Assembly: GCA_016207405.1 (NCBI GenBank)
Contig: JACQPQ010000021.1
Location: 4,936 to 68,935 of the forward strand
Direction of reading: 5' to 3'
DNA: 64,000 nt
Origin: Gammaproteobacteria bacterium
GTDB lineage: Bacteria; Pseudomonadota; Gammaproteobacteria; JACQPQ01
Part shown: positions 746-56,288 of the stretch, one piece after another
Numbering within the stretch: position 1 is the stretch's first letter
Layout: each line of letters starts with the position of its first letter
The notes under the pieces: model-generated
Seen by the model: only the letters and a program-made list of their open reading frames with translations
What the model was told of the DNA's origin: nothing
Database searches by the model: none
Program-made: the position numbers and the translations under genes

Positions 746-782
746 ATAAATTGGTGGACCGCTCGCTTTGTCCACCCTACAA
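746..782. repeat. REP-like palindromic element, reverse-complement orientation of the TAGGGTGGACAAAGCGAGCGGTCCACCAATT family
   Basis: The sequence aattggtggaccgctcgctttgtccaccctacaa is the exact reverse complement of the 42702 copy. It lies in the short spacer between two minus-strand genes. Confidence 0.7.
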
Positions 783-785
783 ATC

Positions 786-3541: not shown

Positions 3542-4132
<591 letters not shown>

Positions 4133-5586: not shown

Positions 5587-5606
5587 TCATTGTAATCGTT
5601 TTTCCC

Positions 5607-5650: not shown

Positions 5651-5651
5651 A

Positions 5652-5672
5652 TGTAGGGTGCGCTTGCGCACC
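5652..5672. repeat. REP-like variant palindrome TAGGGTGCGCTTGCGCACC
   Basis: It is a perfect palindrome GGTGCGC-TTGC-GCGCACC preceded by TAG. The same motif recurs in both orientations at 56226..56288. Confidence 0.5.
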
Positions 5673-5692
5673 GTTCTTAAAATGAGGTAGTT

Positions 5693-7395: not shown

Positions 7396-7926
7396 AACCA
7401 TTCAGAAATTTCTGCTGATTCGCCACCCTGTGGCTTGACCCATAGGGAACTGCACAAATAGAGACATTTAGTTTTTAATGTGAAATTTTCTAATCGTTCA
7501 TCTATTCCTCCTGAGTAACAAAAAACTCATTGTTGCTTCGCCGCGTTTCGCACGACTTGCAACGACGGAGAGGAAGGGGTAGGTGAACGCGGGGGATTTT
7601 CAAAGAATTAAAAAATAAGTATTATTTCAATCAAGTAAAAGCCATCCAATATGTTGTTGAATGGCCTAACCAACAAGATTTCAGCGCAGATACTTTGTAC
7701 CTATGTTCAAAAAGTAAACCTCGGCGGAAACAATCTCCCCAAAGGTCGCGGGAAAATAAGAAAGTGTAGCTTTTGTAGCCGACAGGGAGCGAAGCTGTCG
7801 AGTTTCGTTTTGTCGGATTTAAGCGCTTACGCTTGAATTCGACCTACAATACTGGCAGCAAATATTCTACGCGTAATTTGATGGTCTGCGGACAAAACGG
7901 TTTTTGGTAAAAGTGACAGGGTTGGT

Positions 7927-8307
7927 ATGACAAGAGACAAACTTTCTGGATTTAGTTTGCTTGAAATGGTCATTGCTCTTTTTGTTGTGGGATTGGGTGT
8001 AGTGGGATTGCTGACGCTTCTTCTTCAAGGAATGGTTTTGATCTCGGATGTGGAATTGCGAGATAAAGCAGTCATACTCGCGCATCGAACGGTGGAAGAA
8101 CTGAAGAGCGATCCCCTCAATGGTCATGGGGTTATCGAGAAGGCGCGAGAAGAACTCGCGAAACTTTCCTTTCCAACAGGGAGTACTTTAGATGTCAGGT
8201 GGGATGAGCCGCACGTCCTAAAAATCACACGACAATCTAAACAGTCTTCTGAAGATTCAGATAAGGTACATGAAGACATTTACTATCAAATTCACTTCAG
8301 CCTGTAG
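7927..8307 (+). CDS. Type IV minor pilin (FimT/PilV-like, prepilin N-terminal methylation domain)
   Basis: It has the GFSLLEMVIALFVVGLGVVGL class III signal with conserved Glu+5. Confidence 0.65.
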   Translation: MTRDKLSGFSLLEMVIALFVVGLGVVGLLTLLLQGMVLISDVELRDKAVILAHRTVEELKSDPLNGHGVIEKAREELAKLSFPTGSTLDVRWDEPHVLKITRQSKQSSEDSDKVHEDIYYQIHFSL

Positions 8308-9241: not shown

Positions 9242-10070
9242 TGGCATTGCGAAGCTTTTCCGTTTCGCGGCGAGCGGCTTCTGCGAAGTTGGCGCCCTTT
9301 GCGGCGAAGATAATGTTGCGTGAGGAGTTGATGATAATGCCCTGACTGCGGCTATCTTTGCCGGCAGAGACAGTCTTCTCCAGATCACCGCCTTGTGCAC
9401 CAATGCCAGGAATAAGAATCGGCATATCGTCGACGAGTTTTCGGACTTCGCGGAGTTCTTCGGGAACCGTTGCGCCGACGACGAGCGCGCAGTTGCTATT
9501 CTTGTTCCACTTACTTGCGACGTGGCGAGCAATAAAGCGATAAAGCGGTTCGCTGTTTACGAGTAAGTCCTGAAACTCCCCTGCGCCTCTATTAGATGTG
9601 CGGCAGAGAACAATGATGCCTTTGTCCGCTCGTGCGAGAAATGGCTGCAGCGCTTCGGCTCCCAGATAGGGATGGACGGTGATCGCATCGGCTTGCAAAA
9701 AATCAAACGCCGCATTCACATATCCCGCGTTGGTATTGCCGATGTCTGCACGCTTGGCGTCGAGGATGACCGGGACGTCGGGAGCTCTGAGATGGATATC
9801 CAGGATGGTTCTGTGTAGAGCCCGAATGCCTTCATCACCATGCGCCTCATAAAATGCAATGTTTGGTTTGTACGCACACACCAGGTCCTGGGTTGCTTCT
9901 ACAATCGCCCTATTGAACGCGATGAGCGTACTCTCGACATTTCCCTTAGACTTTGCGTTTCGGCGTATGGATTCTGGGATCTTGCTGAACTCACTGTCGA
10001 GTCCAACTGAAACAAAGTTGCCGCGAGACCATTGAGCCTCCAGCATTTGTCGAAAATTTTGGTTTCGCAT
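9225..10070 (-). CDS. pyrF: Orotidine 5'-phosphate decarboxylase (type 2)
   Basis: It contains VPVILDAKRADIGNTNAGY (DxKRxDIxxT) at a length of 281 aa. It converges on and overlaps the pilW-like 3' end by 17 bp. Confidence 0.8.
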   Translation of the reverse strand: MRNQNFRQMLEAQWSRGNFVSVGLDSEFSKIPESIRRNAKSKGNVESTLIAFNRAIVEATQDLVCAYKPNIAFYEAHGDEGIRALHRTILDIHLRAPDVPVILDAKRADIGNTNAGYVNAAFDFLQADAITVHPYLGAEALQPFLARADKGIIVLCRTSNRGAGEFQDLLVNSEPLYRFIARHVASKWNKNSNCALVVGATVPEELREVRKLVDDMPILIPGIGAQGGDLEKTVSAGKDSRSQGIIINSSRNIIFAAKGANFAEAARRETEKLRNAINQYR

Positions 10071-10090
10071 GAAAGTTCCCTCCTTAGCCC

Positions 10091-11764
10091 TTAGACAAGC
10101 GTCAGCATCTTTCGTGCATGCTGGAGCGTTTCGGGCGTTTGGCTTTTGCCTCCCACCATACGGGCAATTTCTAAAACTCTTTCTTCTTCATTAAGAGGAT
10201 GAACCGTCGAATAAGTCACTTGACACTGTACGGTTTTTTCAACGCGAATATGGGAACTTCCCCAAACGGCGACTTGTGCAAGATGAGTGACACAAATCAC
10301 CTGTTTGCGCTCCCCAAGTTTTTTTAACAGCCGGCCTACGGTATCTGCCGTTTTTCCACCCACGCCCACATCCACTTCATCGAATAGAAAAGTAGGAGTG
10401 GGCAATAAGGTTGTCGTTAAAGCCTCTATGGCAAGACTAATTCTCGAAAGCTCTCCCCCAGAGACTACTTGTTTTAAAGGTTTTAAAGGATGGTCTGGGT
10501 TTGTAGTGATAAGCCATTCGACTTTTTCGAGTCCCTCGGCAGTTTCTTCACCTGAAGCACAAGGAGAAAAATGAACTTTAAACTTTCCATAGGGCATTCC
10601 CAGTTGTTTTAAATAAGGGAGGAGCGCTTTTTCAAAACAAAGCGAAGTGGCTTGGCGCAGACAAGTGAGTTGGTTTGCCTTCTCACAATATGTCTGTTTT
10701 GCACAGAGAGCCGCTTCTCCAAGCTCAGCTATTTTGGGCTCTAGTGCTTCGAGTTCCGCCAACTCACATTTGAGTTTTTTGTGGAAAGAAGGTAAATCGG
10801 GAGCTTTGATGTTATGTTTGCGTACAAGTTGATGAATGCACTCAAGCCGAGTAGATACGTTCAAGAGTTCTTCGGGTTCTATGTCAAGCTTGTTTAAACA
10901 TGACTTTAGGTGAGTTACGGTTTCTTGAACGTAGATATGGGCTTGTTTAAGCAATTCAATTGGCGTTTGCAAACTGCCCTCGTATTCGGAGATTTCTTGC
11001 AGCAAACGGATGGTTTGAAGAAGCGTCTCTTGTGCTGAGCCCTCATCTTTTTCTTCAAGGAGGTTAAGCGATCCGCGAATGTGAGAAAACAGTTTTTCGA
11101 GATGGATCAGGCGGTGGTACTTTTGTTCGAGAGAAGAGAGTTCATTTTCTTGAAGAGCAAGGGCATCGAGTTCTTTAACCTGGTAACTTAAGAGTTCCCG
11201 TGCTGTGAGTTGTTGGCTTGCAAGGGTTTGCGCGATTTTAAAATCCTCTTCTGCCTTCTGCCAAACCGCATAGCTTTTTCTGACCCCATCAAGAAGGGGG
11301 ATATGCTGCCCAAAACTATCCAGAAGTTCCCTTTGAGTCGCTGTCGAAAGAAGCGTTTGATGTTGCTGTTGGGTATGCGTATGAATGAGAAAATTGCCTA
11401 ACTGCTGAAGGAGAGCAACCGTTGTAAGGCTATGATTGATGTAAATTTTAGAGTGCCCTTCTTGAGTGAGAATTCTGCGGATAAGAAGGGTGGTTTCGGG
11501 GGGCGCCAGAAGTTCATGCGCTTTCAACCACTCCATAGCGTGTGGCGCGAAATGTAAGTCGAAGAAAGCGGTAATCTCGCATTTTTCCGCGCCCTGTCGA
11601 ATCAGTGCCGGTTGTGCCCGCTGCCCTAAAATAAGGGCCATCGCTTCGACAAGAATGGATTTTCCTGCGCCTGTTTCTCCCGTGATGACCGTTAGCCCCG
11701 CGTAAAAATCCAGTTCAAGATTTTCAATCGTTAAAAGGTTTTTAACCTGAAGAGATGTCAGCAT
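10091..11764 (-). CDS. recN: DNA repair protein RecN
   Basis: It has the N-terminal LENLELDFYAGLTVITGETGAGKSI, a coiled-coil middle, and a C-terminal SGGELSRISLA signature. Confidence 0.95.
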   Translation of the reverse strand: MLTSLQVKNLLTIENLELDFYAGLTVITGETGAGKSILVEAMALILGQRAQPALIRQGAEKCEITAFFDLHFAPHAMEWLKAHELLAPPETTLLIRRILTQEGHSKIYINHSLTTVALLQQLGNFLIHTHTQQQHQTLLSTATQRELLDSFGQHIPLLDGVRKSYAVWQKAEEDFKIAQTLASQQLTARELLSYQVKELDALALQENELSSLEQKYHRLIHLEKLFSHIRGSLNLLEEKDEGSAQETLLQTIRLLQEISEYEGSLQTPIELLKQAHIYVQETVTHLKSCLNKLDIEPEELLNVSTRLECIHQLVRKHNIKAPDLPSFHKKLKCELAELEALEPKIAELGEAALCAKQTYCEKANQLTCLRQATSLCFEKALLPYLKQLGMPYGKFKVHFSPCASGEETAEGLEKVEWLITTNPDHPLKPLKQVVSGGELSRISLAIEALTTTLLPTPTFLFDEVDVGVGGKTADTVGRLLKKLGERKQVICVTHLAQVAVWGSSHIRVEKTVQCQVTYSTVHPLNEEERVLEIARMVGGKSQTPETLQHARKMLTLV

Positions 11765-12648
11765 TAGAGCTTTCGTCCCCAGTGTAATTTATTTCGGAGG
11801 GTTTTAAAGTAGCAATATCGTTTGGGGTGAATAAGATTCAGGTGTCCTTTTTGTTTTTCGATGTGGATTTCATCCCCAGGCACCGTCGGGAAGACTATTT
11901 GGCTATCACAGCTCACTTTGGGATAAACCTTATTATGGGCAGAAGGGACTAGTTTTATGCGGCGGTTTCCTTCTACGACGATGGGGCGGCTACTTAAGGT
12001 ATGGGGGCATAGGGGAACTAAAACGATAGCATCCAGAGAAGGATGCAAAATAGGCCCGTCGGCGGATAAAGCATAGGCCGTAGAACCCGTTGGGGTCGCC
12101 GTGATGAGGCCATCGGAGCGTTCGCTATAGACAAATTGCTCGTCAATATAGACTTCAAACTCGATCATTTTACTCACGCTCCCATGGGAAAGAAGCACTT
12201 CGTTCAGTGCATTGCCAGTTGCGGTGACTTTGCCTTGGTGTTCTATTCGAAGGGACAACAGGAATCTTTTTTCTTGGTAATATTGCCCACTTAAAACTTC
12301 GAGTAATTCCTCTTCAAGCGCTGTCGGATGAATGTCCGTCAAAAAGCCTAAATGTCCCCGATGAATACCCAGGACCGGCGTTTTCGAAAGCGACAGTGCA
12401 CGAGCTGCATTGAGCAAGTTTCCATCCCCCCCAATGACGATAATCAGTTCTGAACAAGCCGCGAGTTCTGGCATGGGTTTTACGGAAAAAGAGTGCCCTG
12501 GTAAAAGGCTTGCCGTTTGTTCTTCTAATAGGAGGGTACGGTTCTGTTGGAGAAGCGCATCCCGTAAAATTTTAAGTGTTTCGAGGGCTTCCGTGTCTTG
12601 CTGCTTACCAATGACGCCAATGGTTTGGAACAGAGGTTTTTTTGTCAT
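11764..12648 (-). CDS. nadK: NAD kinase
   Basis: It has the GGDGNLL motif (IIVIGGDGNLLNAARAL), the NE/D short motif, and a length of 294 aa. Confidence 0.9.
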   Translation of the reverse strand: MTKKPLFQTIGVIGKQQDTEALETLKILRDALLQQNRTLLLEEQTASLLPGHSFSVKPMPELAACSELIIVIGGDGNLLNAARALSLSKTPVLGIHRGHLGFLTDIHPTALEEELLEVLSGQYYQEKRFLLSLRIEHQGKVTATGNALNEVLLSHGSVSKMIEFEVYIDEQFVYSERSDGLITATPTGSTAYALSADGPILHPSLDAIVLVPLCPHTLSSRPIVVEGNRRIKLVPSAHNKVYPKVSCDSQIVFPTVPGDEIHIEKQKGHLNLIHPKRYCYFKTLRNKLHWGRKL

Positions 12649-12656
12649 ATGCCGTT

Positions 12657-13385
12657 TTATAGGGCCTCTCGGAGATAAACAGGCAGTGCATGTTCTGGCT
12701 GAAGCGTTTCACCTTTTTCGAACTTCTGGATCGCCAAAGGTATTAAAGCTCTGGCCATAGGATAACAGTTGGGAAACGAGTGGTGCAAATAGGGGGCAAA
12801 TCGTGTTTCTAAAACACTTGAATAAGCTTTCCAACCACTTCCTACCCCAACCCATTCCGTTGCTTTAGATAAGAGATTTTCTGGGATAGAAATTTCAGAA
12901 GGTTTCTGTAGGGTATCCGGGATAATAGTTTTTAAAAGGGTAAGGGATAAGGGGTAAGGGGTAAGGGATAAGGGGTAATGATTGTTTTCTTCAATTTGGT
13001 AAGCGCCCCAATAAACAGCTCCCATGCGGGCATCTTGTACTCCTAGTACCGCTCCCTTCGAAAAAGTAAGATGCGCTTCTTCGGCAAGACAAGCCAAGCT
13101 TGAGACAGCCACAATAGGTAAGTCATGGGCAAAGGCAAGGCTTTGCGCGATGGAGGCCCCCAGGCGAACCCCTGTAAAAGTACCTGGCCCCTGACCAAAA
13201 ACAATCAGATCTAAATTTGAAAAAAAAATGTTGCTTTTGGAAAGCAAATTGTGGATCATACCGAGCACGTGAAGACTTGCTTTTTGAGTGCCCTCTTCTT
13301 GTTGCTCGAGTAAATGATTGTGTACAAGAAGCGCAACGGAGCAACGTTCTGTTGAGGTTTCTAGGGCGAGTATGGTGTAAGACAT
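12657..13385 (-). CDS. tsaB: tRNA threonylcarbamoyladenosine biosynthesis protein TsaB (YeaZ). It carries an in-frame heptamer-repeat insertion.
   Basis: It has the N-terminal MSYTILALETSTERCSVALL motif and a YeaZ fold. Residues YPLSLTPYPLSLT are encoded by (TTACCCC/TTATCCC)n at 12937..12979. Confidence 0.85.
   Translation of the reverse strand: MSYTILALETSTERCSVALLVHNHLLEQQEEGTQKASLHVLGMIHNLLSKSNIFFSNLDLIVFGQGPGTFTGVRLGASIAQSLAFAHDLPIVAVSSLACLAEEAHLTFSKGAVLGVQDARMGAVYWGAYQIEENNHYPLSLTPYPLSLTLLKTIIPDTLQKPSEISIPENLLSKATEWVGVGSGWKAYSSVLETRFAPYLHHSFPNCYPMARALIPLAIQKFEKGETLQPEHALPVYLREAL
12937..12979. repeat. (GGGTAAG/GGATAAG)x6 heptamer tandem array inside tsaB
   Basis: The sequence is aagggtaagggataaggggtaaggggtaagggataaggggtaa. 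It is 42 bp, which is a multiple of 3, and is in-frame. It is G4-capable on the plus strand. Confidence 0.75.
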
Positions 13386-13450
13386 GTTTAGTCTGTAAAG
13401 CCAACATCATAGCACGCTCATGAAAGCATGCGTATTTTGCATAAGCGGTA

Positions 13451-14434
13451 ATGTCTCACCAAATGGTTGTAAGCGCATTGAACCAGGGAGAGTTTTTCAT
13501 TTATTCGCATCTACAACAATCGCTTGTAATCCCCATTATTTGGGGCGGGTTGTTGTGTGCCGTAAATATTCCTGCGCTCGCTTCAGACAACAGTCTTCTT
13601 CCCATGACAAACATGGCACGATGTACAAAGTGTCATGATGAAAACACCTCCCCCGTTTTACCTTTATTAAAATCTAAACATGCCGTAGTAGCGGACAAAA
13701 GAACTCCATTTGCAGGGGAAGCATGCCAGACCTGTCACGGGTTAAGTGAAGAACACATGAAAGGTTCTGAAGATGGAGGGCCGCGCCCTTCTCCCAGCGT
13801 TCGATTTGGTTCCAAGTCCAACACCCCTCTTTCAACTCAAAATGAATCCTGTTTAGCCTGCCACCGTTCTGGTTTGCGGATGGAATGGAAAGGCAGTCCA
13901 CATGAAATGAAAGGGGTGGGGTGCATTAGCTGTCATACCCTACACACCGGTTCGGATAAAGTTTTAGATAAAAAAAACCAAGCGGAAGTTTGTTTTACCT
14001 GTCACAAAACACAGAGGGCGGAGAGTCATAAGCTTTCGTCTCATCCCATTCAAGAAGGGAAAGTCGTCTGTTCCTCTTGCCATAATCCCCATGGTGCAGT
14101 AGGGCCAAAACTTTTGAGTACCAATACGGTTAATGAAACTTGTTATACCTGTCACGCGGAAAAACGAGGGCCGTTTTTGTGGGAACATGCTCCTGTGAGC
14201 GAAAACTGCATAACCTGTCATACACCTCATGGCTCTATTCATAAGCCGCTTTTGAAATCCAGGGGGCCGTGGTTGTGCCAGCAATGCCATTTGACATCTA
14301 ATCATCATACGAGTGGTGCCTATAACTGTTCTAGTTGTCACTCAACCCGGCGGCTATCGGGCAAAGATTGTTTAAATTGTCATTCAGAGGTGCATGGATC
14401 GAATCATCCTTCTGGTGCAAGGTTAATGAGGTGA
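13451..14434 (+). CDS. Periplasmic decaheme c-type cytochrome, MtrA/MtoA/PioA family
   Basis: There are 11 CXXCH motifs in 327 aa (CTKCH, CQTCH, CLACH, CISCH, CFTCH, CSSCH, CYTCH, CITCH, CQQCH, CSSCH, CLNCH). The size and heme density are typical of MtrA/MtoA. A large OM beta-barrel gene follows immediately. The signal peptide may start at an upstream non-ATG codon. Confidence 0.8.
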   Translation: MSHQMVVSALNQGEFFIYSHLQQSLVIPIIWGGLLCAVNIPALASDNSLLPMTNMARCTKCHDENTSPVLPLLKSKHAVVADKRTPFAGEACQTCHGLSEEHMKGSEDGGPRPSPSVRFGSKSNTPLSTQNESCLACHRSGLRMEWKGSPHEMKGVGCISCHTLHTGSDKVLDKKNQAEVCFTCHKTQRAESHKLSSHPIQEGKVVCSSCHNPHGAVGPKLLSTNTVNETCYTCHAEKRGPFLWEHAPVSENCITCHTPHGSIHKPLLKSRGPWLCQQCHLTSNHHTSGAYNCSSCHSTRRLSGKDCLNCHSEVHGSNHPSGARLMR

Positions 14435-14479
14435 AAGGGATAAGGTGAAAGGGATAAGGGGGAAGGGATAAGGGGTAAG
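14431..14479. repeat. Heptamer tandem array (GTGAAAG GGATAAG)x2 GGGGAAG GGATAAG GGGTAAG
   Basis: It is a seven-unit direct 7-mer array. The first unit supplies the TGA stop of the decaheme gene. Confidence 0.7.
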
Positions 14480-14485
14480 TTTTTG

Positions 14486-14526
14486 TAGGGTGGACAAAGT
14501 GAGCGCAGCGAACGGTCCACCTAAGC
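14486..14526. repeat. REP-like palindrome TAGGGTGGACAAAGTGAGCGCAGCGAACGGTCCACCtaagc
   Basis: GGTGGAC and GTCCACC arms enclose an inner palindromic core. It lies between the decaheme gene and the porin gene. Confidence 0.7.
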
Positions 14527-14581
14527 TTGCAGGTCGAATTCAAGCGAAGCGTAGAATCCGACAATTAAAACTCAAAAAGCA

Positions 14582-16801
14582 ATGAGAATGCATAAAAAGA
14601 TATTGATAGCCATTTTATATTTGGCCGCATCCCCTCTTTGGGCAGAAGATGATCCTTTTTCTTTTGGCCCGAGTGATGGAGGCCTTTCTCTAGAAGCCCC
14701 CGCTCCACCACCACCCAACCGTCCTAAAAGCGAACTTGAAATAGGCCTCGCATATATCAACCGAGATTCCTTTAAATTTGGAGAGTACACGGGACAAGAA
14801 GAAAAAGGCCCTTATGTTATTGGGAATGTAGACATTCATCGCCGAGGTGCTTTTGATAGCAGAACTTTTGACAGTGATGGTGCACTGTATTGGATTTTGA
14901 GAGGTAGAAACTTGGGTCTTACGTCGCGAGAAATGGAGGTGGAGACTGGGGTACAGGGCGATTATAAGGTAGGGATGAGCTATGACCAATTGCCTAAATT
15001 TCAAACGGATACGGCTAAGACGATATTTCGAGGCGTGGGGGGAGATACACTTACATTACCTCCTGGGTGGGTAAGAGCTGACGAAACATCTGATATGACA
15101 GAGCTTAATAATAGTCTTCACGAACTCAAGGTAAGCCATGAACGTAAGAAGTATGGTATGGAGTTTTCCAAATTCTTTTCCCGTGGTTGGGAGTTTAGTG
15201 CGAAGTATCATCGTGAAACGAAAGAGGGGAAAAAGCTTGTAGGGGCCATTATAGAGAGTTGGGACTTTGATGATAGTTTTCATGAACCCACCGTTATTAT
15301 CCCTGAGCCTATCGATTACGTCACTCAACAAGTGGATGTGAAATTGAGCTTTACAGGGAAAAAGAGCCAATTTGAGGGGGGGTATTCCGTATCCTTGTTT
15401 GATAACCACAAAGATTCTCTTATTTGGGAAAATCCATTTTCTGCAATTGGAGGGACGCCTGAAACAAGAGGCAGAATAGGGCTGCCTCCTGATAATCAGT
15501 TTCATCAATTAAAAGCGATCTGGGGATATAACTTCGCCCCAAACACTCGTTTAACAGCCCATGGAACGTTCGGAAGAATGACTCAGGATGAGCGGTTCCT
15601 TCCCTATACCATCAACCCAGATTTGGCCGGTTCAGGCCTTCCTCGTTCTTCTTTAAATGGTAGGGTGGATACCTTAAGTTTTTATACTAAATTATTTTCA
15701 CGGTATGGAAATGCTCTGAATTGGGTGGCCAGTTATCGCTATGAAGACCGGGACAATCGCACGTCAAGGGCTTCCTATATTGGTTATGGTGATGCAGCCG
15801 ATCAAGGGGGGGTAGCAAACGCTAGAACTAATCTTCCTTTTAGTTTCAAGCAGAATCAATTCAAGCTTGATGCAACCTATGAATGGTTTTACCGGACGTA
15901 CTTACAGGGCGGCTATGAATACACTCAAATGGAACGCACGCTTTCAGAAGTGAAGAAAAACCAAGAACATTTATATCGGTTAGAGATCAGACGTAATGCG
16001 TTTGACTCATTAACAGGAGGCATTCGTTTTCTTCAGGCTTATCGGCGGGGATCTTCTTATCGAACCACTGCTCTTCAAACGGCTACGGGAGGGGAACATT
16101 CAATGATTCATCCTCTTCAAAGAAAGTTTTATTTAGCCAGCAAAAATAGAACCCAAGGCGGGGGTTTTATGGAGCTTGATCCAATCGAAGCGGTGACGCT
16201 TCAGTTATCTATTGACTTGTATGAAGATGACTATTTAAAGTCAAAAATGGGATTGCGGAAAAGTATGGGACAAGTTTACGCAATAGATGCGACGATGGTT
16301 CCTAAAAAAGATATTACCACGTATGCTTTTTACACCTATGAACATTCGTATTCCGATCAGAAAGAGCGAGCCTTTGAGACTGTTGCTGAGAGCAATGATC
16401 CACGAAGAGACTGGAATAAAAAAACACGAGAAGGGATAGATACGCTGGGGGCTGGTTTTAAATGGGGTCCTTTTTTGGATCGGTGGGATACGGGGGCGGA
16501 TTATACTTACGCACGCTCGCGTGGAAAGGGCCCTGTGAAAACAGGCTCTGCTTTGGATGCTCCCGATCCACCCATTCGTATGTTAACCACGGAGCTTCAC
16601 CGGTTAGATGTCTTTTTAAAATATAAAATCAAAGAGTCGCTTTCGGCTAAGATGAATGTTCTTTATGAGAAATTCAGTTCGCGGGATTATGCCGTCGATA
16701 AAATACAATTAAACGAAATAGATACGATTTTGATAACGGGTGAAAAGAGCCCAGATTACTCAGTTTCTGTAATTGGACTGTCGTTGTTATATGATTTTTA
16801 G
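14582..16801 (+). CDS. Outer-membrane beta-barrel of a porin-cytochrome complex (MtrB/MtoB/PioB-like)
   Basis: It is 739 aa with a signal peptide (MRMHKKILIAILYLAASPLWA), abundant alternating aromatic beta-strand patterns (YxYxxR, FxF), and a C-terminal LLYDF, which is the OMP Phe terminus. It sits immediately 3' of the decaheme gene. Confidence 0.75.
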   Translation: MRMHKKILIAILYLAASPLWAEDDPFSFGPSDGGLSLEAPAPPPPNRPKSELEIGLAYINRDSFKFGEYTGQEEKGPYVIGNVDIHRRGAFDSRTFDSDGALYWILRGRNLGLTSREMEVETGVQGDYKVGMSYDQLPKFQTDTAKTIFRGVGGDTLTLPPGWVRADETSDMTELNNSLHELKVSHERKKYGMEFSKFFSRGWEFSAKYHRETKEGKKLVGAIIESWDFDDSFHEPTVIIPEPIDYVTQQVDVKLSFTGKKSQFEGGYSVSLFDNHKDSLIWENPFSAIGGTPETRGRIGLPPDNQFHQLKAIWGYNFAPNTRLTAHGTFGRMTQDERFLPYTINPDLAGSGLPRSSLNGRVDTLSFYTKLFSRYGNALNWVASYRYEDRDNRTSRASYIGYGDAADQGGVANARTNLPFSFKQNQFKLDATYEWFYRTYLQGGYEYTQMERTLSEVKKNQEHLYRLEIRRNAFDSLTGGIRFLQAYRRGSSYRTTALQTATGGEHSMIHPLQRKFYLASKNRTQGGGFMELDPIEAVTLQLSIDLYEDDYLKSKMGLRKSMGQVYAIDATMVPKKDITTYAFYTYEHSYSDQKERAFETVAESNDPRRDWNKKTREGIDTLGAGFKWGPFLDRWDTGADYTYARSRGKGPVKTGSALDAPDPPIRMLTTELHRLDVFLKYKIKESLSAKMNVLYEKFSSRDYAVDKIQLNEIDTILITGEKSPDYSVSVIGLSLLYDF

Positions 16802-17401
16802 ATGAGGGGAACAATCATGATTAAACGTCTATGGCAAATTCTATGGGCTCCCAGTAGCCGCTATTCGATAGCTGCCTTACTCATAGTGGGTGCTATCGGG
16901 GGGGTGGTATTCTGGGGTGGGTTTAACACGTTTATGGAATACACGAACAGTTTAAGTTTTTGTACGGGCTGTCATGAAATGAGTAGTACTGTATATCCAG
17001 AGTACCAAAAAACTATTCATTACCAGAACAGAACAGGCGTTCGGGCCGTGTGTGCCGACTGCCACGTTCCACATGAGTGGGGACCCAAATTGCTCCGTAA
17101 AATTCAGGCATCCAATGAGCTTTATCATAAAATCGTGGGAACGATAAACACTCCTGAAAAGTTTGAGGCTAGACGTCTTGAGATGGCAGAGCGGGTGTGG
17201 ACCAGCATGAAGGCGACCGATTCCAGGGAGTGTCGAAACTGCCATGACTTTACGGCGATGGAATTAGAAAGGCAAAAGCCGCTTGCACGTACGCAGCATG
17301 AAAATGCAATGCGAGAAAAACAAACGTGTATTGACTGCCATAAGGGTATTGCGCATAAACTGGTTCAGCCTGAATTAAAATCAGAAGATTTTATGATGTA
17401 G
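16802..17401 (+). CDS. NapC/NirT/CymA-family membrane tetraheme cytochrome c (quinol dehydrogenase)
   Basis: It has an N-terminal TM helix (IKRLWQILWAPSSRYSIAALLIVGAIGGVVFWGGF) and four CXXCH motifs (CTGCHEM, CADCHVPH, CRNCHDF, CIDCHKGIAH). It aligns with the NapC N-terminus. Its TAG stop is the first three bases of a REP element. Confidence 0.85.
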   Translation: MRGTIMIKRLWQILWAPSSRYSIAALLIVGAIGGVVFWGGFNTFMEYTNSLSFCTGCHEMSSTVYPEYQKTIHYQNRTGVRAVCADCHVPHEWGPKLLRKIQASNELYHKIVGTINTPEKFEARRLEMAERVWTSMKATDSRECRNCHDFTAMELERQKPLARTQHENAMREKQTCIDCHKGIAHKLVQPELKSEDFMM

Positions 17402-17441
17402 GGTGGACTTGCGCTCGCGTAAGCGAGCAGTCCACCAATTC
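17400..17441. repeat. REP-like palindrome TAGGGTGGACTTGCGCTCGCGTAAGCGAGCAGTCCACCAATT
   Basis: GGTGGAC and GTCCACC outer arms enclose the nested palindrome CGCTCGC-GTAA-GCGAGCG. The TAG supplies the cymA-like stop. Confidence 0.7.
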
Positions 17442-17466
17442 TAACTATTAATAGAGGAGAAATTTT

Positions 17467-18438
17467 ATGCAAAAGTCATTTAATAAACAAACTTTCATTT
17501 TAAGTGGGCTTTTGTTTTTATTACAAATTTTTATTTCTGCGGGTGCACATGCCGTCAACTGGGATACGATAAAAGGAAAGGACATTGCTTTGCTTTATCC
17601 AGGGCAGGCTTCGTGGGAGGCGGTGCTATCGACCCCCTCAATGGGCGCAGCACTGAAAGCAGGTAAAACCTGCCGAACGTGCCATGAAGGGGACCAAAAA
17701 AATATGGGAGATAAGGGCGTATCTGGAAAAGGGCAGCTCGGAGGGAAATCATTGGAGCCTACTCCTGTGGCAGGAAAACCAGGAAGCTTGCCGCTTTTAG
17801 TAAAGGCTGCTTACGATGCAGAAAAACTTTATATCAAATTTGAGTGGACAGAGCCTGCCGGAGAGCCTGCCAGCAAGATGGATCCTGATTTTGTCAGCAA
17901 AGTTGCTTTAATGTTGGATGATGGTCATGTGGTAGAAGCTGCTCGAAGTGGCTGTTGGGGCACTTGTCATGATGATGTGAAAACAATGCCGAGTGGTACA
18001 GGTAAAGAAATCACAAAATATTTAGCAGCTTCTCGCACCAAATTGGATAGAACAGGAGGCGGAGCAAACTATAAATCTCAAGCAGATCTAGACAAACTTT
18101 TAAAGGATGGAGTTTTCATGGAATTTTGGCAGGCCAAACTCAAAAAAGACAAGCCAGCTGTTCCAGTATCCGGATATATTTTGGATAAACGTCATGAACA
18201 CACTTCTTCTCCTGTGCAAGCCGAGTCTGTTTTTAAAGACGGCAAATGGAGTGTTGTATTGTCTCGCAAGTTAAAGTTAGGAACTGCAGGCATGAAGGAT
18301 GTTGAGGAGAAAAAGACCTATGCTATTGGATTTGCAGTTCATAGCCAATATGCAAAGGAACGTTTCCACCATGTTTCTTTTGGGTACACCCTAACACTAG
18401 GAACAGGCACGGCAGATATTGTTGCTATTAAGAGCTAA
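17467..18438 (+). CDS. Secreted c-type cytochrome with a DOMON/ethylbenzene-dehydrogenase-like heme-binding domain
   Basis: It has a signal peptide, one canonical CRTCHEG and one CWGTCH (CX3CH) motif, and a beta-rich C-terminus (KLYIKFEWTEP..., SVVLSRKLKLG, AIGFAVHSQYAKERFHHVS) reminiscent of EB_dh/DOMON heme domains. It is the last gene of the cytochrome cluster. Confidence 0.45.
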   Translation: MQKSFNKQTFILSGLLFLLQIFISAGAHAVNWDTIKGKDIALLYPGQASWEAVLSTPSMGAALKAGKTCRTCHEGDQKNMGDKGVSGKGQLGGKSLEPTPVAGKPGSLPLLVKAAYDAEKLYIKFEWTEPAGEPASKMDPDFVSKVALMLDDGHVVEAARSGCWGTCHDDVKTMPSGTGKEITKYLAASRTKLDRTGGGANYKSQADLDKLLKDGVFMEFWQAKLKKDKPAVPVSGYILDKRHEHTSSPVQAESVFKDGKWSVVLSRKLKLGTAGMKDVEEKKTYAIGFAVHSQYAKERFHHVSFGYTLTLGTGTADIVAIKS

Positions 18439-18451
18439 GTTTTAATTTTGG

Positions 18452-18488
18452 CCCTCTCTCCCGAAAAGCGGGAGAGAGGGTTTGGGTG
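18452..18488. terminator. Bidirectional intrinsic terminator hairpin (CCCTCTCTCCCG-aaaa-CGGGAGAGAGGG followed by tttgggtg)
   Basis: It is a perfect 12-bp GC-rich stem between the convergent cytochrome cluster and the 18499 gene. Confidence 0.65.
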
Positions 18489-18498
18489 AGTAATTATT

Positions 18499-19002
18499 TC
18501 AGCCAGGACTATTTACCACGTGGTCGATGACAAGTTGAAGATCTCGACTCCCCACCTTAGCCGTTACAGGCTGACTTTCCAAGTCCCCCTTCTGAAGATG
18601 CGCATCTCCAGATTTTGAAATACGCGCAATAATAGTGGCTTTCGGAAACTGAGAAAGGGTTAGATCAGGCGTCATAGCCATGCTGTCATTTAAAACAAAT
18701 GACTTGGGTAAGTCTCGAACTTCCGCGCGAATAACCGCCAAAGGCAATTGTGGCCCGTCCACGGCTTTTGCAAAAATAAATACGAGATCGGTAGGGGAAG
18801 TTTGATTGGCTAAATCAGGGGTAAGCGAAACGGTTCCAGAAACGCTGGTCACGTCTCCCCCTGCTTCACCGCCCATAACGACTTCTGGTGAGATTTTTGT
18901 TTTTGCAAAATAAGAAAAATAAACAACACCGATGGCTATGAGAGCCACGCTCATTAAGAGGATGAGCTTTATGTTTGAGATCCCATAATAGGTTTGTCGC
19001 AT
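18499..19002 (-). CDS. Membrane-anchored hypothetical protein (one N-terminal TM helix)
   Basis: The product is 167 aa with an N-terminal TM (IKLILLMSVALIAIGVVYFSYFA) and a periplasmic-looking tail containing VRDLPKSFVLNDSMAM. I have only a weak recollection of similarity to the C-terminal region of cytochrome-c biogenesis CcmI. Confidence 0.4.
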   Translation of the reverse strand: MRQTYYGISNIKLILLMSVALIAIGVVYFSYFAKTKISPEVVMGGEAGGDVTSVSGTVSLTPDLANQTSPTDLVFIFAKAVDGPQLPLAVIRAEVRDLPKSFVLNDSMAMTPDLTLSQFPKATIIARISKSGDAHLQKGDLESQPVTAKVGSRDLQLVIDHVVNSPG

Positions 19003-20402
19003 AAAATTTTCTCCTTCTTGTTGTGGTTTCCTCTATATATGTTTTCCAAAGCTTTCAACATTGAGCTTACTTTATGAAAAGTCTCTTGATACTCTGCATC
19101 AAGTGTGGAGTCTACTACGATTCCACCTCCCGCCCAACAGTGAATACTGTTTTGACTGCATACCAAGGTGCGAATGGCAATATTCATATTCATTTTCCCG
19201 CTCGTGCTGATATATCCCAGTGAACCGGTGTACAGAGAACGCCGATGAGGCTCTAAGTTTTCAATAATTTCCATGGCACGAATTTTGGGCGCTCCGGTTA
19301 CCGATCCCCCCGGAAAACAATTTCGGAAGAGCTCCAGAGCGCCCTTGTCACTTGCAAGCTCACCGGTGACATGGCTTACCATATGATGAACATTCTTCAA
19401 TCGTTCTAGAGCAAACAGTTCTGGGACTCGGATGCTTCCAAATTTGCAGCTTTTGCCTAAGTCATTCCTAAGAAGATCAACGATCATGAGGTTTTCAGCC
19501 CGATCTTTTTCGCTGGTATATAGTTCTTCGTATAAACTATGATCTTGTTTAGGTTCGCTTGAACGAGGCCGCGTGCCTTTAATCGGAGAAGTTTTAACGT
19601 AAGGGGGTGTGACCTCTAAAAAACGTTCGGGGGAAAGGCAGAGAACACTCCCCCACGGTATTCTGAAAAAGGCAGAAAAAGCACCTGGGTTAATAGATCT
19701 TAAAGTTTTGTAAGCGAGCCAGGACTCACCCCTGTAAATCGAAGAAAATCGTTGAGCTAAATTTACTTGGTAGCAATCTCCTTCTTTTAAATGGTGGGCA
19801 ATGGTGTAAAAGGCGTGTTTGTAAAAATCATAAGTCATATTGGAGTAAAAAGGGGCATCTAGGGAGAAATGCGAAGATGGCCTGTAAATAGGGGCACCTA
19901 GCAGGCTTTTGAATGGCAGTTTTGTTGTGCCTAAAGAATGAGAGGCGCTGACACAGTAAGTACGTTGTTCGACATGATCGACAATAATCGCCCAGTCGTA
20001 AAAACCTACCGCCATTTCAGGCAGTAGGATATCTGCGGTGCTAAGGGTCGGTAGCACCTCTAACTGCCAAGCGAGATCATAAGCGAAATAGCCTAGCGCG
20101 CCTCCTTGAAAGGGTAAGAATGGATGAATGGATTGAGGGGGCGGCTGTTTTTCCAATTCCTCCTTAAGAACTAACCATGGAGACTGCCGGACTTGCTTTT
20201 TTAAATCTTTGGTTTCAATGAATACTTTATTCTTCCAAGCCGTTATGGTTTTAAAAGGATTAGCGGAGAGAATATCATAACGCCCTGCCGGAGTATTTAA
20301 ATACGGTTGGCAACTATCCAAAAAAATAGGCCATCGGTAAGGAAGTAGCTCTTCTGCGAGAAGGGTACTGTCTTCGTGGTAAGAAAGTTCGGTAAGGTGC
20401 AT
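18969..20402 (-). CDS. pabB: Aminodeoxychorismate synthase component I
   Basis: It aligns end-to-end with E. coli PabB (PFQGGALGYF.YDL, GDCYQVNLAQRF, FSAF.R, PERFL, PIKGT.PR, DRAENLMIVDL.RND, HHMVS.V.G.L, FPGGS.TGAPK.RAMEII.ELE, AGGGIV.DS..E.EYQET). Confidence 0.8.
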   Translation of the reverse strand: MHLTELSYHEDSTLLAEELLPYRWPIFLDSCQPYLNTPAGRYDILSANPFKTITAWKNKVFIETKDLKKQVRQSPWLVLKEELEKQPPPQSIHPFLPFQGGALGYFAYDLAWQLEVLPTLSTADILLPEMAVGFYDWAIIVDHVEQRTYCVSASHSLGTTKLPFKSLLGAPIYRPSSHFSLDAPFYSNMTYDFYKHAFYTIAHHLKEGDCYQVNLAQRFSSIYRGESWLAYKTLRSINPGAFSAFFRIPWGSVLCLSPERFLEVTPPYVKTSPIKGTRPRSSEPKQDHSLYEELYTSEKDRAENLMIVDLLRNDLGKSCKFGSIRVPELFALERLKNVHHMVSHVTGELASDKGALELFRNCFPGGSVTGAPKIRAMEIIENLEPHRRSLYTGSLGYISTSGKMNMNIAIRTLVCSQNSIHCWAGGGIVVDSTLDAEYQETFHKVSSMLKALENIYRGNHNKKEKILCDKPIMGSQT

Positions 20403-20477
20403 GGCTGTTCTAAAGGGTCAAATTAAACATAGTAAGGGCTGGCACGTTTTTGTGTAATCCCTCATTGATGGGGGGTA

Positions 20478-20661
20478 GTTTGCTGTGTATTTACCGCTGC
20501 CTGCTGCTCGCTAAAAGTCCCCTGCGCTCCTAGAATTTTTCCGGCCGCACACATTCGGCATCCTGCCTCATGTGTGCTAAAAATGCGTCCTGCATTTTTT
20601 CCGGAAAAATTCTACGTCGCTCGGGGACGCTCGCAAAGGCAGCGGTAAATACACAGCAAAC
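20478..20661. mobile_element. MITE-like non-coding element, copy A (184 bp), with perfect 24-bp terminal inverted repeats and a conserved structured core
   Basis: The termini GTTTGCTGTGTATTTACCGCTGCC and GGCAGCGGTAAATACACAGCAAAC are perfect reverse complements. The core (about 20502..20637) is about 88% identical to 37981..38116. It contains internal palindromes (GCACACAT...ATGTGTGC and TTTTTCCGGAAAAA). There is no ORF. Confidence 0.7.
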
Positions 20662-20691
20662 CACCCTCCCCACCAATTCTAGGCTAGGGGA

Positions 20692-41364: not shown

Positions 41365-42688
41365 AATTCATAAAGCCTTCCATTGTTCTTTTTGTGGGAA
41401 AGGTCAGAATGAAGTTCATAAATTAATAGCGGGGCCTTCTGTTTTTATTTGCGATGAGTGCGTCAAACTTTGCACTGACATTATTTCAGAAGAGTTGAAA
41501 GAAAATAAACAACTGGGCGTTCACGCGGGGCTCGCAGTGCCTGCCGAAATTAAAACCTTTCTAGATGACTATATCATTGGACAGGAACAAGCTAAAAAAG
41601 TACTCTCTGTTGCGGTTTATAATCATTACAAGCGTTTGTTGTACCAACCAGAAGGTGGCAGCAAAGCATTGGGCGCTTCTTCCCAAAATTCCGTTGAACT
41701 AAGCAAAAGTAATATTTTACTGATTGGTCCTACCGGGAGCGGAAAAACATTATTAGCCGAAACGCTTGCCCGTTTTCTGAATGTTCCTTTTGCGATTGCG
41801 GATGCGACAACCCTCACAGAAGCCGGTTATGTAGGAGAAGATGTTGAAAACATCATTCAAAAACTTCTGCAGAAGTGTGCATTTGATGTTGAGAAAGCCA
41901 AGAAAGGAATTGTGTATATTGATGAGATCGACAAACTATCCCGAAAATCCGAAAATCCTTCCATCACTCGGGATGTTTCTGGCGAAGGGGTGCAGCAGGC
42001 GCTTCTAAAATTAATGGAAGGTACGACCGCGTCTGTTCCCCCGCAAGGCGGTCGAAAACACCCTCAACAAGAATACCTACAAGTAGATACCACGCACATT
42101 TTGTTTATCTGTGGGGGTGCTTTTGTAGGGCTTGAAAAAATCATCCGTGCCCGTTCTGACCAAACGGGCATTGGGTTTTCTGCCCAGTTATCTTCTGCCA
42201 AGCATCCCAAGGATTTAGAGGCAACCCTTGAAGCCGTTGAACCTCAAGATTTAATCAAATACGGGATGATCCCCGAGTTTGTAGGCCGGCTGCCTATTGT
42301 CACCACCTTACATGAACTGGATGAATCCGCATTGGTTCGAATTTTAAAAGAACCTAAAAATGCGCTTATCAAGCAATATAAAAAATTGTTTGAACTGGAA
42401 CAAGTGGAATTAGACCTTCGAGAGGATGCGCTGGGCGCCATTGCAAAGCGCGCCATGCAAAGAAAAACCGGTGCACGAGGCTTGCGGTCCATTTTGGAAA
42501 AAGTTTTGCTCGATACGATGTATAAGTTACCGTCTTTAAAGTCTTTGAAAAACGTATCCAAAGTGGTAGTGGATGCTTCTGTCATTTATGAAAAAACAAA
42601 ACCTCTTTTTATTTATCAGCCCATCGATAAAAAAGCCAAAGAGAATAGAGAAAAGGAAGAAGTCGCAGTAGGTCGGATTCAAGCGTAA
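41342..42688 (+). CDS. clpX: ATP-dependent Clp protease ATP-binding subunit ClpX
   Basis: It has the zinc-finger [27 protein letters not shown], Walker A GPTGSGKT, and the GFSAQ and IPEFVGRLP motifs. Confidence 0.95.
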
Positions 42689-42701
42689 ACGCAGATCTGA
42701 G

Positions 42702-42732
42702 TAGGGTGGACAAAGCGAGCGGTCCACCAATT
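42702..42732. repeat. REP-like palindrome TAGGGTGGACAAAGCGAGCGGTCCACCAATT (minimal copy)
   Basis: It lies 13 bp after the clpX stop. This is the canonical form of the family. Confidence 0.7.
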
Positions 42733-55020: not shown

Positions 55021-55026
55021 ATGTAG

Positions 55027-55070
55027 GCCGGGGCAAGCGCGTCTTTTTGCACGGCCCCGGCATTCTTTTC
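55027..55070 (+). terminator. Intrinsic terminator (GCCGGGGC...GCCCCGGC followed by attcttttc)
   Basis: It is an 8-bp GC stem with a long loop, immediately after the stop of the 641-aa gene. Confidence 0.5.
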
Positions 55071-55095: not shown

Positions 55096-56226
55096 ATGCC
55101 AATCTCATCCTTATTCATCGGGGCACTGTCCGGTACGAGTATGGACTCCATAGATGCGGCTGTATTTAATTTTGTTTCTTATCCTCCAGAGCTCATTGGG
55201 CATTGTGAACGTCCTTTTCCTGTCTCTCTTCGAAAAAAAATTCAAATGATTGTGGACAGCCGCAAGCTAGCCCTTAAGACTTTTATTCAACTGGATGTCT
55301 GTATGGGGAGAGAAATTGCAAAAACCGTGAACACATTACTCAAAATCACTAGTCTTTCGAAAGCCGCTATTGCCGCGATTGGGAGTCATGGGCAAACGCT
55401 CTACCATGCACCGAACTCTCCTTATCCCTCTTCGTTACAGATAGGTGATCCCAATATTATTGTCACCCAAACCGGTATAACGACGGTTTCAGATTTTAGG
55501 CGGCGGGATATGGCTTATAAAGGACAAGGCGCGCCTCTAGCCCCTCATTTACATGCCACTCTCTTTAGAAGCCGAGAACACGACAGGATTATTTTAAATA
55601 TCGGTGGCATTGCGAATGTGACGATATTGCCTGCAGATCCCAATTTACCTATTACGGGTTTTGATACGGGGCCAGGCAATCTCTTGATGGATGCGTGGAT
55701 ATCCCATCACAGGCCACATTCACCTTACGATCAGGATGGAAAATGGGCAGCAGAAGGTAAAGTTCAGTCAAAACTTCTCCATCATTTACTCAAGGATCCA
55801 TATTTTAAGCGGCCGTCACCCAAAAGCACAGGCAGAGAATATTTCAATTTAGGATGGTTACTCGAACGACTTAAATTCTTTAAACCCTTCTCTCCGAAGG
55901 ATGTTCAAGCGACTTTGCTGGCACTGACTGTAGAAAGTATTACCATGGCGCTTCAAAGATGGGGGAGCTCGCCAAACGCTCAGATTTATGTGTGTGGAGG
56001 AGGGGCTTTAAATCCCATACTGATCTTGCAGCTTCAGAAAAGGCTTGTGAACCATTCTATTCAGAGCACGGAAGTGTTAGGCATCCTTCCTAAGCATCTG
56101 GAACCGTTACTCTTTGCGTGGCTCGCCAAACAAACGCTCGAACGAAAAACAGGCAATATACCCACGGTCACCGGCGCTCAGAGAGAGACTCTATTGGGGG
56201 GAATTTATCTTGCTAACTTTTCGTAG
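55096..56226 (+). CDS. anmK: Anhydro-N-acetylmuramic acid kinase
   Basis: It has the N-terminus FIGALSGTSMDSIDAA, an ASKHA fold and a length of 376 aa. Its TAG stop is the first triplet of a REP-like palindrome. Confidence 0.85.
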   Translation: MPISSLFIGALSGTSMDSIDAAVFNFVSYPPELIGHCERPFPVSLRKKIQMIVDSRKLALKTFIQLDVCMGREIAKTVNTLLKITSLSKAAIAAIGSHGQTLYHAPNSPYPSSLQIGDPNIIVTQTGITTVSDFRRRDMAYKGQGAPLAPHLHATLFRSREHDRIILNIGGIANVTILPADPNLPITGFDTGPGNLLMDAWISHHRPHSPYDQDGKWAAEGKVQSKLLHHLLKDPYFKRPSPKSTGREYFNLGWLLERLKFFKPFSPKDVQATLLALTVESITMALQRWGSSPNAQIYVCGGGALNPILILQLQKRLVNHSIQSTEVLGILPKHLEPLLFAWLAKQTLERKTGNIPTVTGAQRETLLGGIYLANFS

Positions 56227-56288
56227 GGCGCGCTTCTGCACCACTCTACAAGAAGCTGATTTTAAGAATGGTGCGCAAGCGCACCCTA
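56226..56288. repeat. Pair of inverted REP-like variant palindromes (TAGGGCGCGCTTCTGCACCA ... TGGTGCGCAAGCGCACCCTAC)
   Basis: It is related to TAGGGTGCGCTTGCGCACC at 5652. It lies between convergent anmK and erpA. Confidence 0.55.

Follow-up and report, generated by a model that had tools for sequence, protein, structure and literature searches.

Probable GTAG-tagged REP elements behind gene ends in a 64-kb stretch of an uncultured gammaproteobacterium, with a RAYT association of one class in other genomes

Introduction

The GTAG-REP superfamily described by Di Nocera, De Gregorio & Rocco (2013, BMC Genomics 14:522) comprises 24 families, SMAG of S. maltophilia included, whose members are defined by an unpaired GTAG tag, stems of 6-13 bp, HH, TT and HT dimers, and a location downstream of ORFs (PMC3733652). 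The same work already recorded that the TAG of the tag often serves as a stop codon for flanking ORFs, and that GTAG-REP families are common to distant organisms (Di Nocera et al., 2013; PMC3733652). In E. coli, S. maltophilia and Marinomonas, REP-associated tyrosine transposases (RAYTs) bind the folded single strand and cleave at CT or CA beside the hairpin, with GTAG in a guide-like role, and GTAG is needed for RAYT binding or cleavage (PMC8266576). The closest described arrangements are the REP/BIME elements of E. coli with TnpAREP (group 2 REPtron; Ton-Hoang, 2012; Messing, 2012; Corneloup, 2021), the group 3 REPtrons of S. maltophilia and Marinomonas MWYL1, and the REPINs of P. fluorescens (Bertels & Rainey, 2011).

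Here we describe a family of short palindromes in a window of 64 kb (the whole stretch of DNA that was analysed) from an uncultured gammaproteobacterial MAG. A previous sequence-only reading had called these palindromes REP/BIME-type elements, and we consider them very probably to be REPs of the GTAG type, the class that is bound and cut by RAYT/TnpAREP transposases. The earlier label is upheld, and sharpened to GTAG-tagged REP on the strength of the unpaired tag, the stem, the dimers and the placement.

The repeat family and its units

The repeat family is a direct observation. The pattern GGTGGAC-N(5-35)-GTCCACC, which underlies the five copies first recognised, occurs five times in the window against 0.01 expected from dinucleotide-preserving shuffles (pattern search; 753-776, 3595-3631, 14489-14521, 17402-17436 and 42705-42728), and three variants with GTGCGC, also proposed earlier, were recovered at 5653, 56223 and 56279-56289 (minus strand). 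The TAG that had been taken as the first three bases of the element is present, and the element begins one base earlier, a G preceding each of these eight copies to give GTAGG; accordingly, GTAGGGYGSRC occurs eight times in the window against 0.10 expected, as the five GGTGGAC and the three GTGCGC-type copies. For the heptamer GGTGGAC alone the count is 14 where 4.6 would be expected, with 11 of the 14 lying in REPs or in a partial duplicate at 3577; the three free copies, set against 4.6 expected in total, represent no excess outside the hairpins and the duplicate.

A GTAG-plus-stem scan together with pattern searches yielded a catalogue of 13 units in five stem classes and nine spacers, each unit being 20-41 nt long and consisting of a G+C-rich stem-loop directly after an unpaired GTAG(G). 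The tag reads GTAG in 12 of the 13, and GCAG in R6. At least three stem classes are repeated, namely class I (GGTGGAC stem; GTAGG-GTGGAC...GTCCAC-C; R1, R2, R5, R7 and R9), class II (GGTGCGC stem; GTAGGGTGCGC-TT-GCGCACC; R3, R12 and the degenerate R11) and class III (TCGGAT stem; GTAGGTCGRATTCAAGCG...ATCCGAC; R4b, R8 and the GCAG-headed R6), and to these are added two single-copy GTAG-headed hairpins. Units beyond those listed earlier comprise the carriers of GTAGGTCGRATTCAAGCG (three copies against 0.04 expected) and GTAGGCCGGGGC at 55023-55061; GTAGCCGACAG at 7775-7802 is possibly a further GTAG-headed palindrome. The units and the partial duplicate are as follows.

R1, 753..780, minus strand: class I, GTAGGGTGGACAAAGCGAGCGGTCCACC; fold -11.8 kcal/mol with GUAG unpaired; 5 nt past the TAA of a DAHP-synthase gene (786-2024, minus strand) and 19 nt ahead of the ATG of a PEBP gene
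Partial direct duplicate of the class I head, 3573..3590, plus strand: GTGGGGTGGACAAAGTGC, directly 5' of R2; 18-nt period, 2.3 copies
R2, 3591..3631, plus strand: class I, with GCGAGCG directly duplicated in the loop; in the guaA/deaminase-gene spacer, with GTGCGGA heptamer arrays on either side
R3, 5653..5672, plus strand: class II, GTAGGGTGCGCTTGCGCACC; perfect 7-bp stem, TT loop; directly adjoined upstream by a terminator-like hairpin with a T-run (5608-5652)
R4a, 7775..7802, plus strand: possible class IV, GTAGCCGACAG..CTGTCG; weak fold (z -1.25), single copy; forms a head-to-head pair with R4b
R4b, 7813..7847, minus strand: class III, GTAGGTCGAATTCAAGCGTAAGCGCTTAAATCCGA; -11.6 kcal/mol, z -3.25; in the divergent spacer between a pilT-like gene and pilin genes
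R5, 14485..14521, plus strand: class I; downstream of a heptamer array (14429-14479) in the mtrA-mtrB spacer
R6, 14529..14563, plus strand: class III with the degenerate head GCAG; in tandem with R5, 18 nt ahead of the mtrB start
R7, 17398..17436, plus strand: class I, the sole copy with an inner stem (GCTCGC/GCGAGC, loop GTAA); -25.7 kcal/mol, z -5.9, the strongest single unit; its TAG (17399-17401) is the stop of a NapC/NirT (cymA-like) gene and the next base opens the stem
R8, 42668..42700, plus strand: class III; overlaps the 3' end of clpX and contains its last seven codons (VAVGRIQA) and TAA stop (42686-42688)
R9, 42701..42728, plus strand: class I; 33 nt identical to R1, AATTT tail included; abuts R8, with the convergent clpX and yggT each 12 nt away
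R10, 55023..55061, plus strand: class V, GTAGGCCGGGGC..GCCCCGGC; -23.5 kcal/mol, single copy in the window; 2 nt past the TAA of ORF 53095-55020
R11, 56223..56242, plus strand: degenerate class II, GTAGGGCGCGCTTCTGCACC; its TAG (56224-56226) is the stop of anmK
R12, 56270..56289, minus strand: class II; its TAG (56288-56286) is the stop of an erpA-like gene (56286-56633, minus strand); with R11 it forms a head-to-head, REPIN-like dimer that occupies the entire convergent spacer

A nested inner palindrome, which had been put forward as a general feature of the elements, was seen only in the copy at 17400 (R7; GCTCGC-GTAA-GCGAGC, 6 bp), the other class I copies having either a plain unpaired loop of 10 nt (AAAGCGAGCG; R1 and R9) or a GCGAGCG duplication that is direct, not inverted (R2 and R5). 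Thirteen units in nine spacers within 64 kb would scale to hundreds per genome, counted from this one contig. An Rfam scan of the window returned only three tRNAs, and no RNA family over any unit. Counting which tetranucleotide stands at the foot of each of the 133 perfect 7-bp hairpins was uninformative, since A+T-rich chance hairpins dominated the set.

Folding and dimers

The tag-plus-stem design is likewise observed directly. All 12 RNA folds leave GUAG without pairing partners, directly 5' of the stem, with energies from -8.1 to -37.5 kcal/mol and z scores of -2.3 to -5.9 for the class I and class II units; the folds of the class III units R6 and R8 and of R4a are weak (z -1.0 to -1.7). 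The R11/R12 dimer folds into one long hairpin (-37.5 kcal/mol, z -7.2). Between classes the stem arms co-vary with pairing kept (GGTGGAC/GTCCACC, GGTGCGC/GCGCACC and GGCCGGGGC/GCCCCGGC), and the tag is constant. The dimers comprise one homotypic HH pair (R11/R12), one heterotypic HH pair (R4a/R4b) and two heterotypic HT pairs (R5-R6 and R8-R9), so that orientation alternates only in R11/R12 and R4a/R4b, the other two pairs being tandem. No conserved motif linking REP to REP was seen in the window, and the BIME designation fails on this point. G-rich heptamer arrays adjoin some of the units.

Position relative to genes and stop codons

Placement behind genes, too, is read directly from the annotated window. 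As had been claimed for the copies known earlier, the elements are intergenic and 3'-proximal: all 13 units are extragenic or overlap only the last codons of a gene, in a window of which non-coding DNA makes up about 11% on a generous ORF map. The nine spacers are co-directional in five cases, convergent in three and divergent in one, and eight of the nine follow the 3' end of a gene. Measured from the stop, the tag is at -21, -4 (three times), 2, 5, 12, 49, 50, 66 and 94 nt. Every singleton or tandem unit behind a gene (9/9) has its GTAG facing the stop of a co-oriented gene, and among the class II singletons listed from other genomes a co-oriented stop is faced in 22 cases against 10.

That the element supplies or abuts stop codons was also borne out, the tag being the stop in 3 of the 13 units and 7 of the 13 lying within 15 nt of a stop. 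As previously proposed, the cymA-like gene and anmK truly end in the TAG of a tag (17399-17401 and 56224-56226, respectively), and a third, previously unlisted gene takes its stop from a tag, namely the convergent erpA-like gene (56286-56633, minus strand). Of 60 ORFs in the window ten end in TAG, and three of these stops are REP tags. The C-terminus of the erpA-like protein aligns exactly with the end of H. influenzae HI1723, and AnmK is two residues longer than Shewanella structure 3cqy by C-terminal alignment; the CymA-like protein extends about three residues beyond its homologues, the tails of which vary in length and the nearest of which is only 70% identical. Together these three alignments place the units at the ancestral stops or no more than a few codons away.

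The stop-codon role of the tag seems to be incidental and not a product of selection, since closure of reading frames elsewhere runs at the background level for TAG: in other genomes, among the matches listed, the tag closes a frame of at least 100 codons in 16 of 177 class II copies (9%), compared with 7.8% of all TAG. A converse idea, that GTAG represents a pre-existing stop captured as an insertion target, is unlikely, as the tag acts in vitro as a guide and cleavage falls at CT/CA, and it is countered further by the background-level use of TAG stops in other genomes.

Comparison with described REP systems

The units agree with GTAG REPs in size, unpaired tag, extragenic position behind ORFs and dimer types. 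As in the GTAG-REP superfamily, an unpaired terminal GTAG is joined to a G+C-rich stem of 6-9 bp, the loops being short and TT-type in class II, and long and irregular in class I; singletons occur beside HH and HT dimers, several classes share one genome, most units follow ORFs in unidirectional or convergent spacers, and flanking ORFs can take their stop from the TAG within the tag. The window differs from the described members in its host, an uncultured gammaproteobacterial MAG, and apparently in its stems: GGTGGAC and GGTGCGC were not found in the text of Di Nocera et al. (2013) or the supplements searched with it, nor in the other literature searched. Likeness to the E. coli elements of the group 2 REPtron extends to the order of parts, from GTAGG through outer stem, unpaired bases and inner stem to loop; R7, in which a 3-nt bulge separates the outer from the inner stem, is like the bulged group 2 REPs. 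In contrast to the E. coli BIME, conserved linkers were not seen, and units adjoin units of a different class or arrays of G-rich heptamers instead; nor does the window hold a RAYT.

The E. coli REP unit reads GTAGGCCGGAT...ATCCGGC and the REPs of P. fluorescens carry GTGG-type heads; class III of the window (GTAGGTCGGAT...ATCCGAC) resembles the former. Class II resembles the group 3 REPtrons of S. maltophilia and Marinomonas MWYL1 in pairing perfectly over 7 bp around a minimal loop behind its GTAG tag; in other genomes, at loci L097, L029, L123 and L125, inverted copies with GTAG outward flank a RAYT of about 180 aa. Like the REPINs of P. fluorescens (Bertels & Rainey, 2011), R11/R12 and 34 class II HH dimers elsewhere, among the matches listed, are inverted, closely spaced and able to form one long hairpin; unlike REPINs, which are symmetric doublets, most of the window units stand singly or in heterotypic tandems.

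Class I and class II in other genomes

The class I pattern of 21 nt (GTAGGGTGGACAAAGNGAGCG, one free position) had no match in 185,579 species genomes, and three in metagenomes, on unrelated contigs of 58-68% G+C. These three are a one-mismatch variant of a GTAGGGTGGGCA...TGCCCAC hairpin, pair with an arm GTGCCCAC, and share with class I the head and a loop of GCGAGCG repeats; they look like relatives of class I, and not members. None of the three contigs carries a RAYT, and no case of class I adjoining any RAYT was found in the species genomes (185,579) or metagenomes scanned.

The exact 20-mer of class II, by contrast, occurs at no fewer than 118 loci in about 44 species genomes of several phyla, the hosts listed being Gallionellaceae, Sideroxydans, Nitrosomonadales, other Betaproteobacteria, Acidiferrobacterales, Mariprofundaceae, Desulfobacterota, Binatia, Truepera and Acidobacteriaceae, some of which labels derive from MAG bins and may be unreliable. 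The matches listed include 164 exact copies and the 34 HH pairs, which are mostly spaced by 9-11 nt, in surrounding DNA of 44-70% G+C.

The association of class II with RAYT genes is directly observed in other genomes. A RAYT gene lies between inverted class II REPs with GTAG outward at L097, L029, L123 (Gallionellaceae) and L125 (Binatia), and only decayed RAYT fragments persist at L059; all five RAYT-bearing loci belong to the class II loci listed or to related ones. The RAYT of L097 (4235-4774) scores 195.7 bits against NCBIfam NF047646 (cut-off 80) and 24.3 bits against Pfam Y1_Tnp, and that of L029 (5195-5731, minus strand), from a Truepera MAG, is 51% identical to it. Scoring of 8,000 candidates gave at least 7,968 relatives of the L097 protein at E<=1e-20, and several of these bear the name REP-associated tyrosine transposase; among the best 120 of them none was labelled as a gammaproteobacterial MAG. 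A second RAYT, at L093, is flanked by a different GTAG class (GTAGGTGCGAAT). Within the 64-kb window, a motif scan and tblastn with two RAYTs found no RAYT gene, and the REPtron arrangement of a RAYT between inverted REPs was thus encountered for class II in other genomes only.

Discussion

If the elements are GTAG-type REPs, then the single-stranded hairpin with its GTAG would be the substrate of a RAYT/TnpAREP transposase of the HUH-tyrosine type, by analogy with E. coli, Stenotrophomonas and Marinomonas, and such an enzyme would be expected to bind tag and stem and to cut at a nearby CT or CA. The units of the window may have been seeded and spread by a RAYT of this kind, and may persist where insertion is harmless, in the spacers between cistrons and just a few bases past stop codons. 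A unit landing on or replacing a stop codon may itself supply the stop, since the tag contains TAG; this would account for the three genes that use it here, of which the erpA-like product appears to have kept exactly its ancestral length, with AnmK exceeding a solved homologue by about two residues and the cymA-like protein its homologues by about three. Once transcribed, the hairpins would probably act as E. coli REPs do, blocking 3'-to-5' exonucleases and stabilising the upstream cistron, and the seven units no more than 15 nt from a stop, R7 foremost among them, might slow terminating ribosomes. A transcript-stabilising role of this sort, as the sequence-only reading had suggested, is plausible by that analogy. 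R3, which lies downstream of a terminator-like hairpin, may hardly be transcribed.

The same properties could be read differently, namely that the repeats are kept mainly as RNA devices of the host (3' stabilisers or ribosome brakes), their link with a transposase being historical or absent here. The sense orientation of all nine singleton or tandem units behind genes, with the weaker bias of 22 against 10 among the class II singletons listed elsewhere, leaves room for selection at the level of RNA. The proximity of seven units to a stop fits the same reading, given that E. coli REPs within 15 nt of a stop lower translation (Liang, 2015, in the account given by PMC12306157), as do the -25.7 kcal/mol hairpin of R7, which begins one base past UAG, and a 64-kb window free of RAYT genes. 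We nevertheless regard this as a doubtful, if possible, primary explanation: the evidence comes from a small sample, and the reading leaves unexplained the invariant unpaired GTAG, for which a role in RAYT recognition has been demonstrated (PMC8266576), the RAYT genes flanked by class II in five genomes, the copies in a divergent spacer (R4a/R4b), and R3 behind its terminator-like hairpin.

It is improbable that the palindromes are chiefly insertion targets of the IS110/IS1111 family. The ORF at 7264-7395, some 380 nt from the R4a/R4b pair, contains GIDISK, which we take to resemble an IS110 N-terminal motif, and REPs are documented targets of insertion sequences, the IS110 family included (PMC1525189). 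Against this, the 43-codon ORF, earlier taken for an IS110 remnant, had no match in Pfam or NCBIfam (E<=1 in each), by tblastn against 72,556 plasmids, or in a search of 5.8 billion proteins, and no insertion interrupts a REP anywhere in the window, so that neither the remnant nor the proposed IS110/IS1111 link was upheld. To be an insertion target is in any event a secondary property, which would not explain the repeats.

That the hairpins are rho-independent transcription terminators, another function suggested earlier, is very unlikely. G+C-rich stem-loops do sit just past stop codons, but none of the units has a T-run behind it (tail sequences AATTC, GGGAT, TAAGC and GTTCT), which argues that they are not intrinsic terminators, and a list of terminator-like sites for positions 1-20000 includes none of them. 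Furthermore, R5/R6 and R7 are placed between genes of what appears to be a single operon (mtrA-mtrB-cymA-EB_dh), R1 is followed after 8 nt by a ribosome-binding site, that of the next gene, and the hairpin that does carry a T-run is a separate one ahead of R3. Finally, DNA uptake sequences, or sites for a host DNA-binding protein with no link to transposition, might likewise be short, over-represented and often paired in inverted orientation behind genes, yet this is scarcely credible here, where the GGTGGAC core is not in excess outside hairpins (three free copies against 4.6 expected in total), stems vary by class with only tag and pairing kept, and the units avoid the gene interiors in which uptake sequences are also common.

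The GTAG-REP identification explains three TAG stops and the REP-encoded tail of ClpX, and identifies what fills many intergenic spacers of this MAG. For annotation it carries a warning, in that the spacers of mtrA-mtrB-cymA would be repeat insertions and not regulatory regions specific to the pathway. Stem classes are added to the GTAG-REP catalogue, and the understanding of REPs as such is unchanged.

We tentatively entertain the further possibility that one RAYT lineage of about 180 aa (NF047646), together with the near-invariant 20-nt REP GTAGGGTGCGCTTGCGCACC, moved horizontally between distant phyla and seeded the colony in the window, though we judge this the less probable outcome. If true, such movement would cut against the view of a near-exclusively vertical inheritance of REPIN-RAYT systems, and the word-for-word recurrence of class II with its RAYT in several phyla offers a data set on which horizontal transfer of REP and RAYT can be tested. 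Many of the class II hosts belong to iron-oxidising lineages (Gallionellaceae, Sideroxydans and Mariprofundaceae), together with Nitrosomonadales, Binatia, Truepera, Desulfobacterota and the gammaproteobacterium of the window.

Related REP classes in other genomes

GTAGGGTGGACAAAGCGAGCGCC, which is common to the head and loop of the class I REPs (GGTGGAC stem), recurs in three unrelated contigs from metagenomes, with G+C contents of 58-68% (L002, 768-820; L003, (-)1645; L004, 7578-7600). Head and loop are alike in the two settings, whereas the pairing arm differs, being GTGCCCAC in the metagenome contigs. As GTAGGGTGGACAAAGCGAGCGCC there pairs with a GTGCCCAC arm, a class I-related REP class exists in high-G+C organisms. 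In a different gammaproteobacterial MAG (locus L093; 3130-3186, 4535-5170(-) and 5159-5216), dimers of a further GTAG class, GTAGGTGCGAATTYATTCGCAC, lie on both sides of a gene for a REP-associated tyrosine transposase (RAYT), which scores 96.3 bits against NF047646; at a distance of 2 kb there is a class II dimer. Together, the dimers flanking the RAYT gene and the class II dimer suggest that REPs of two classes coexist in this genome, perhaps with two REPtrons (REP plus RAYT).

Repeats adjoining REPs and genes

Within the window, tandem G-rich heptamer arrays of 3-8 units each (GGGGTAA, GGGATAA, GTGAGGG, GTGCGGA) occupy intergenic spacers, and adjoin three of the five class I REPs.

Heptamer arrays in the window
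786-810(-), spacer
3544-3571, spacer
3637-3660, spacer
4103-4129, spacer
12938-12978, inside tsaB (12657-13385(-)), antisense and in frame
14429-14479, spacer
32627-32679(-), spacer
47586-47608(-), spacer
48228-48253(-), spacer

In the intergenic arrays the sense strand is the G-rich strand and TAA is present in every unit; two genes appear to have their stop codon within one of these arrays. That preceding 32617 terminates as TAAGGAG-N7-ATG, which is a ribosome-binding site. The single array within a gene, that in tsaB, accounts for two YPLSLTP copies in the TsaB-like protein. The intergenic arrays are similar to heptamer repeats of Xanthomonas and Nostoc (GGGNATC) that form G-quadruplexes (PMC4692102). 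REP sequence itself is also translated: at 42668-42688 the class III unit R8 encodes the last seven ClpX residues (VAVGRIQA) and the TAA stop, so that the ClpX tail is repeat-derived.

Other repeats and inverted sequences in the window
5608-5652, hairpin CGTCGTTGCG...CGCAACGACG plus ATTTTTAT, ahead of the class II REP R3
6950-7030, 16-nt inverted repeat CCCGGGCAAGCGCCTT / AAGGCGCGCGACCCGG, in the pilT-like/pilin spacer
7264-7395, 43-codon ORF with a GIDISK motif, in the same spacer
20473-20666 and 37952-38145, palindromic element of ~170-190 nt, two copies
28607-28699, 34-nt unit, 2.7 copies, in the spacer before ORF 28705-29181
53250-53310 and 53463-53523, 61-nt direct repeat, 95% identical, inside ORF 53095-55020
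56679-56706 and 57558-57585, 28-nt direct repeat of the tRNA-Arg 3' end

The copies of the palindromic element share 86% identity (91.5% over 106 nt) and have inverted arms TAGAATTTTTCCGG/CCGGAAAAATTCTA; the element resembles either a MITE or a long repeat akin to REPINs. A half-sequence related to the hairpin ahead of R3 is found again at 7530-7570. The pilT-like gene and the pilin genes are separated by a 1-kb spacer lacking a long ORF, and its 43-codon ORF had no detectable homologue in Pfam, NCBIfam, a tblastn search of 72,556 plasmids or a 5.8-billion-protein search. Pfam likewise returned no match for ORF 53095-55020.

Associated gene content

The tRNA-Arg repeats enclose a Fic/DOC gene (56944-57471(-)); integration of a small element at a tRNA gene leaves this pattern. 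At 13451-18438, a decahaem MtrA-like cytochrome, MtrB/PioB porin, NapC/NirT (CymA-like) quinol dehydrogenase and EB_dh-domain protein are encoded, a cluster suggesting that this uncultured gammaproteobacterium carries out extracellular electron transfer.
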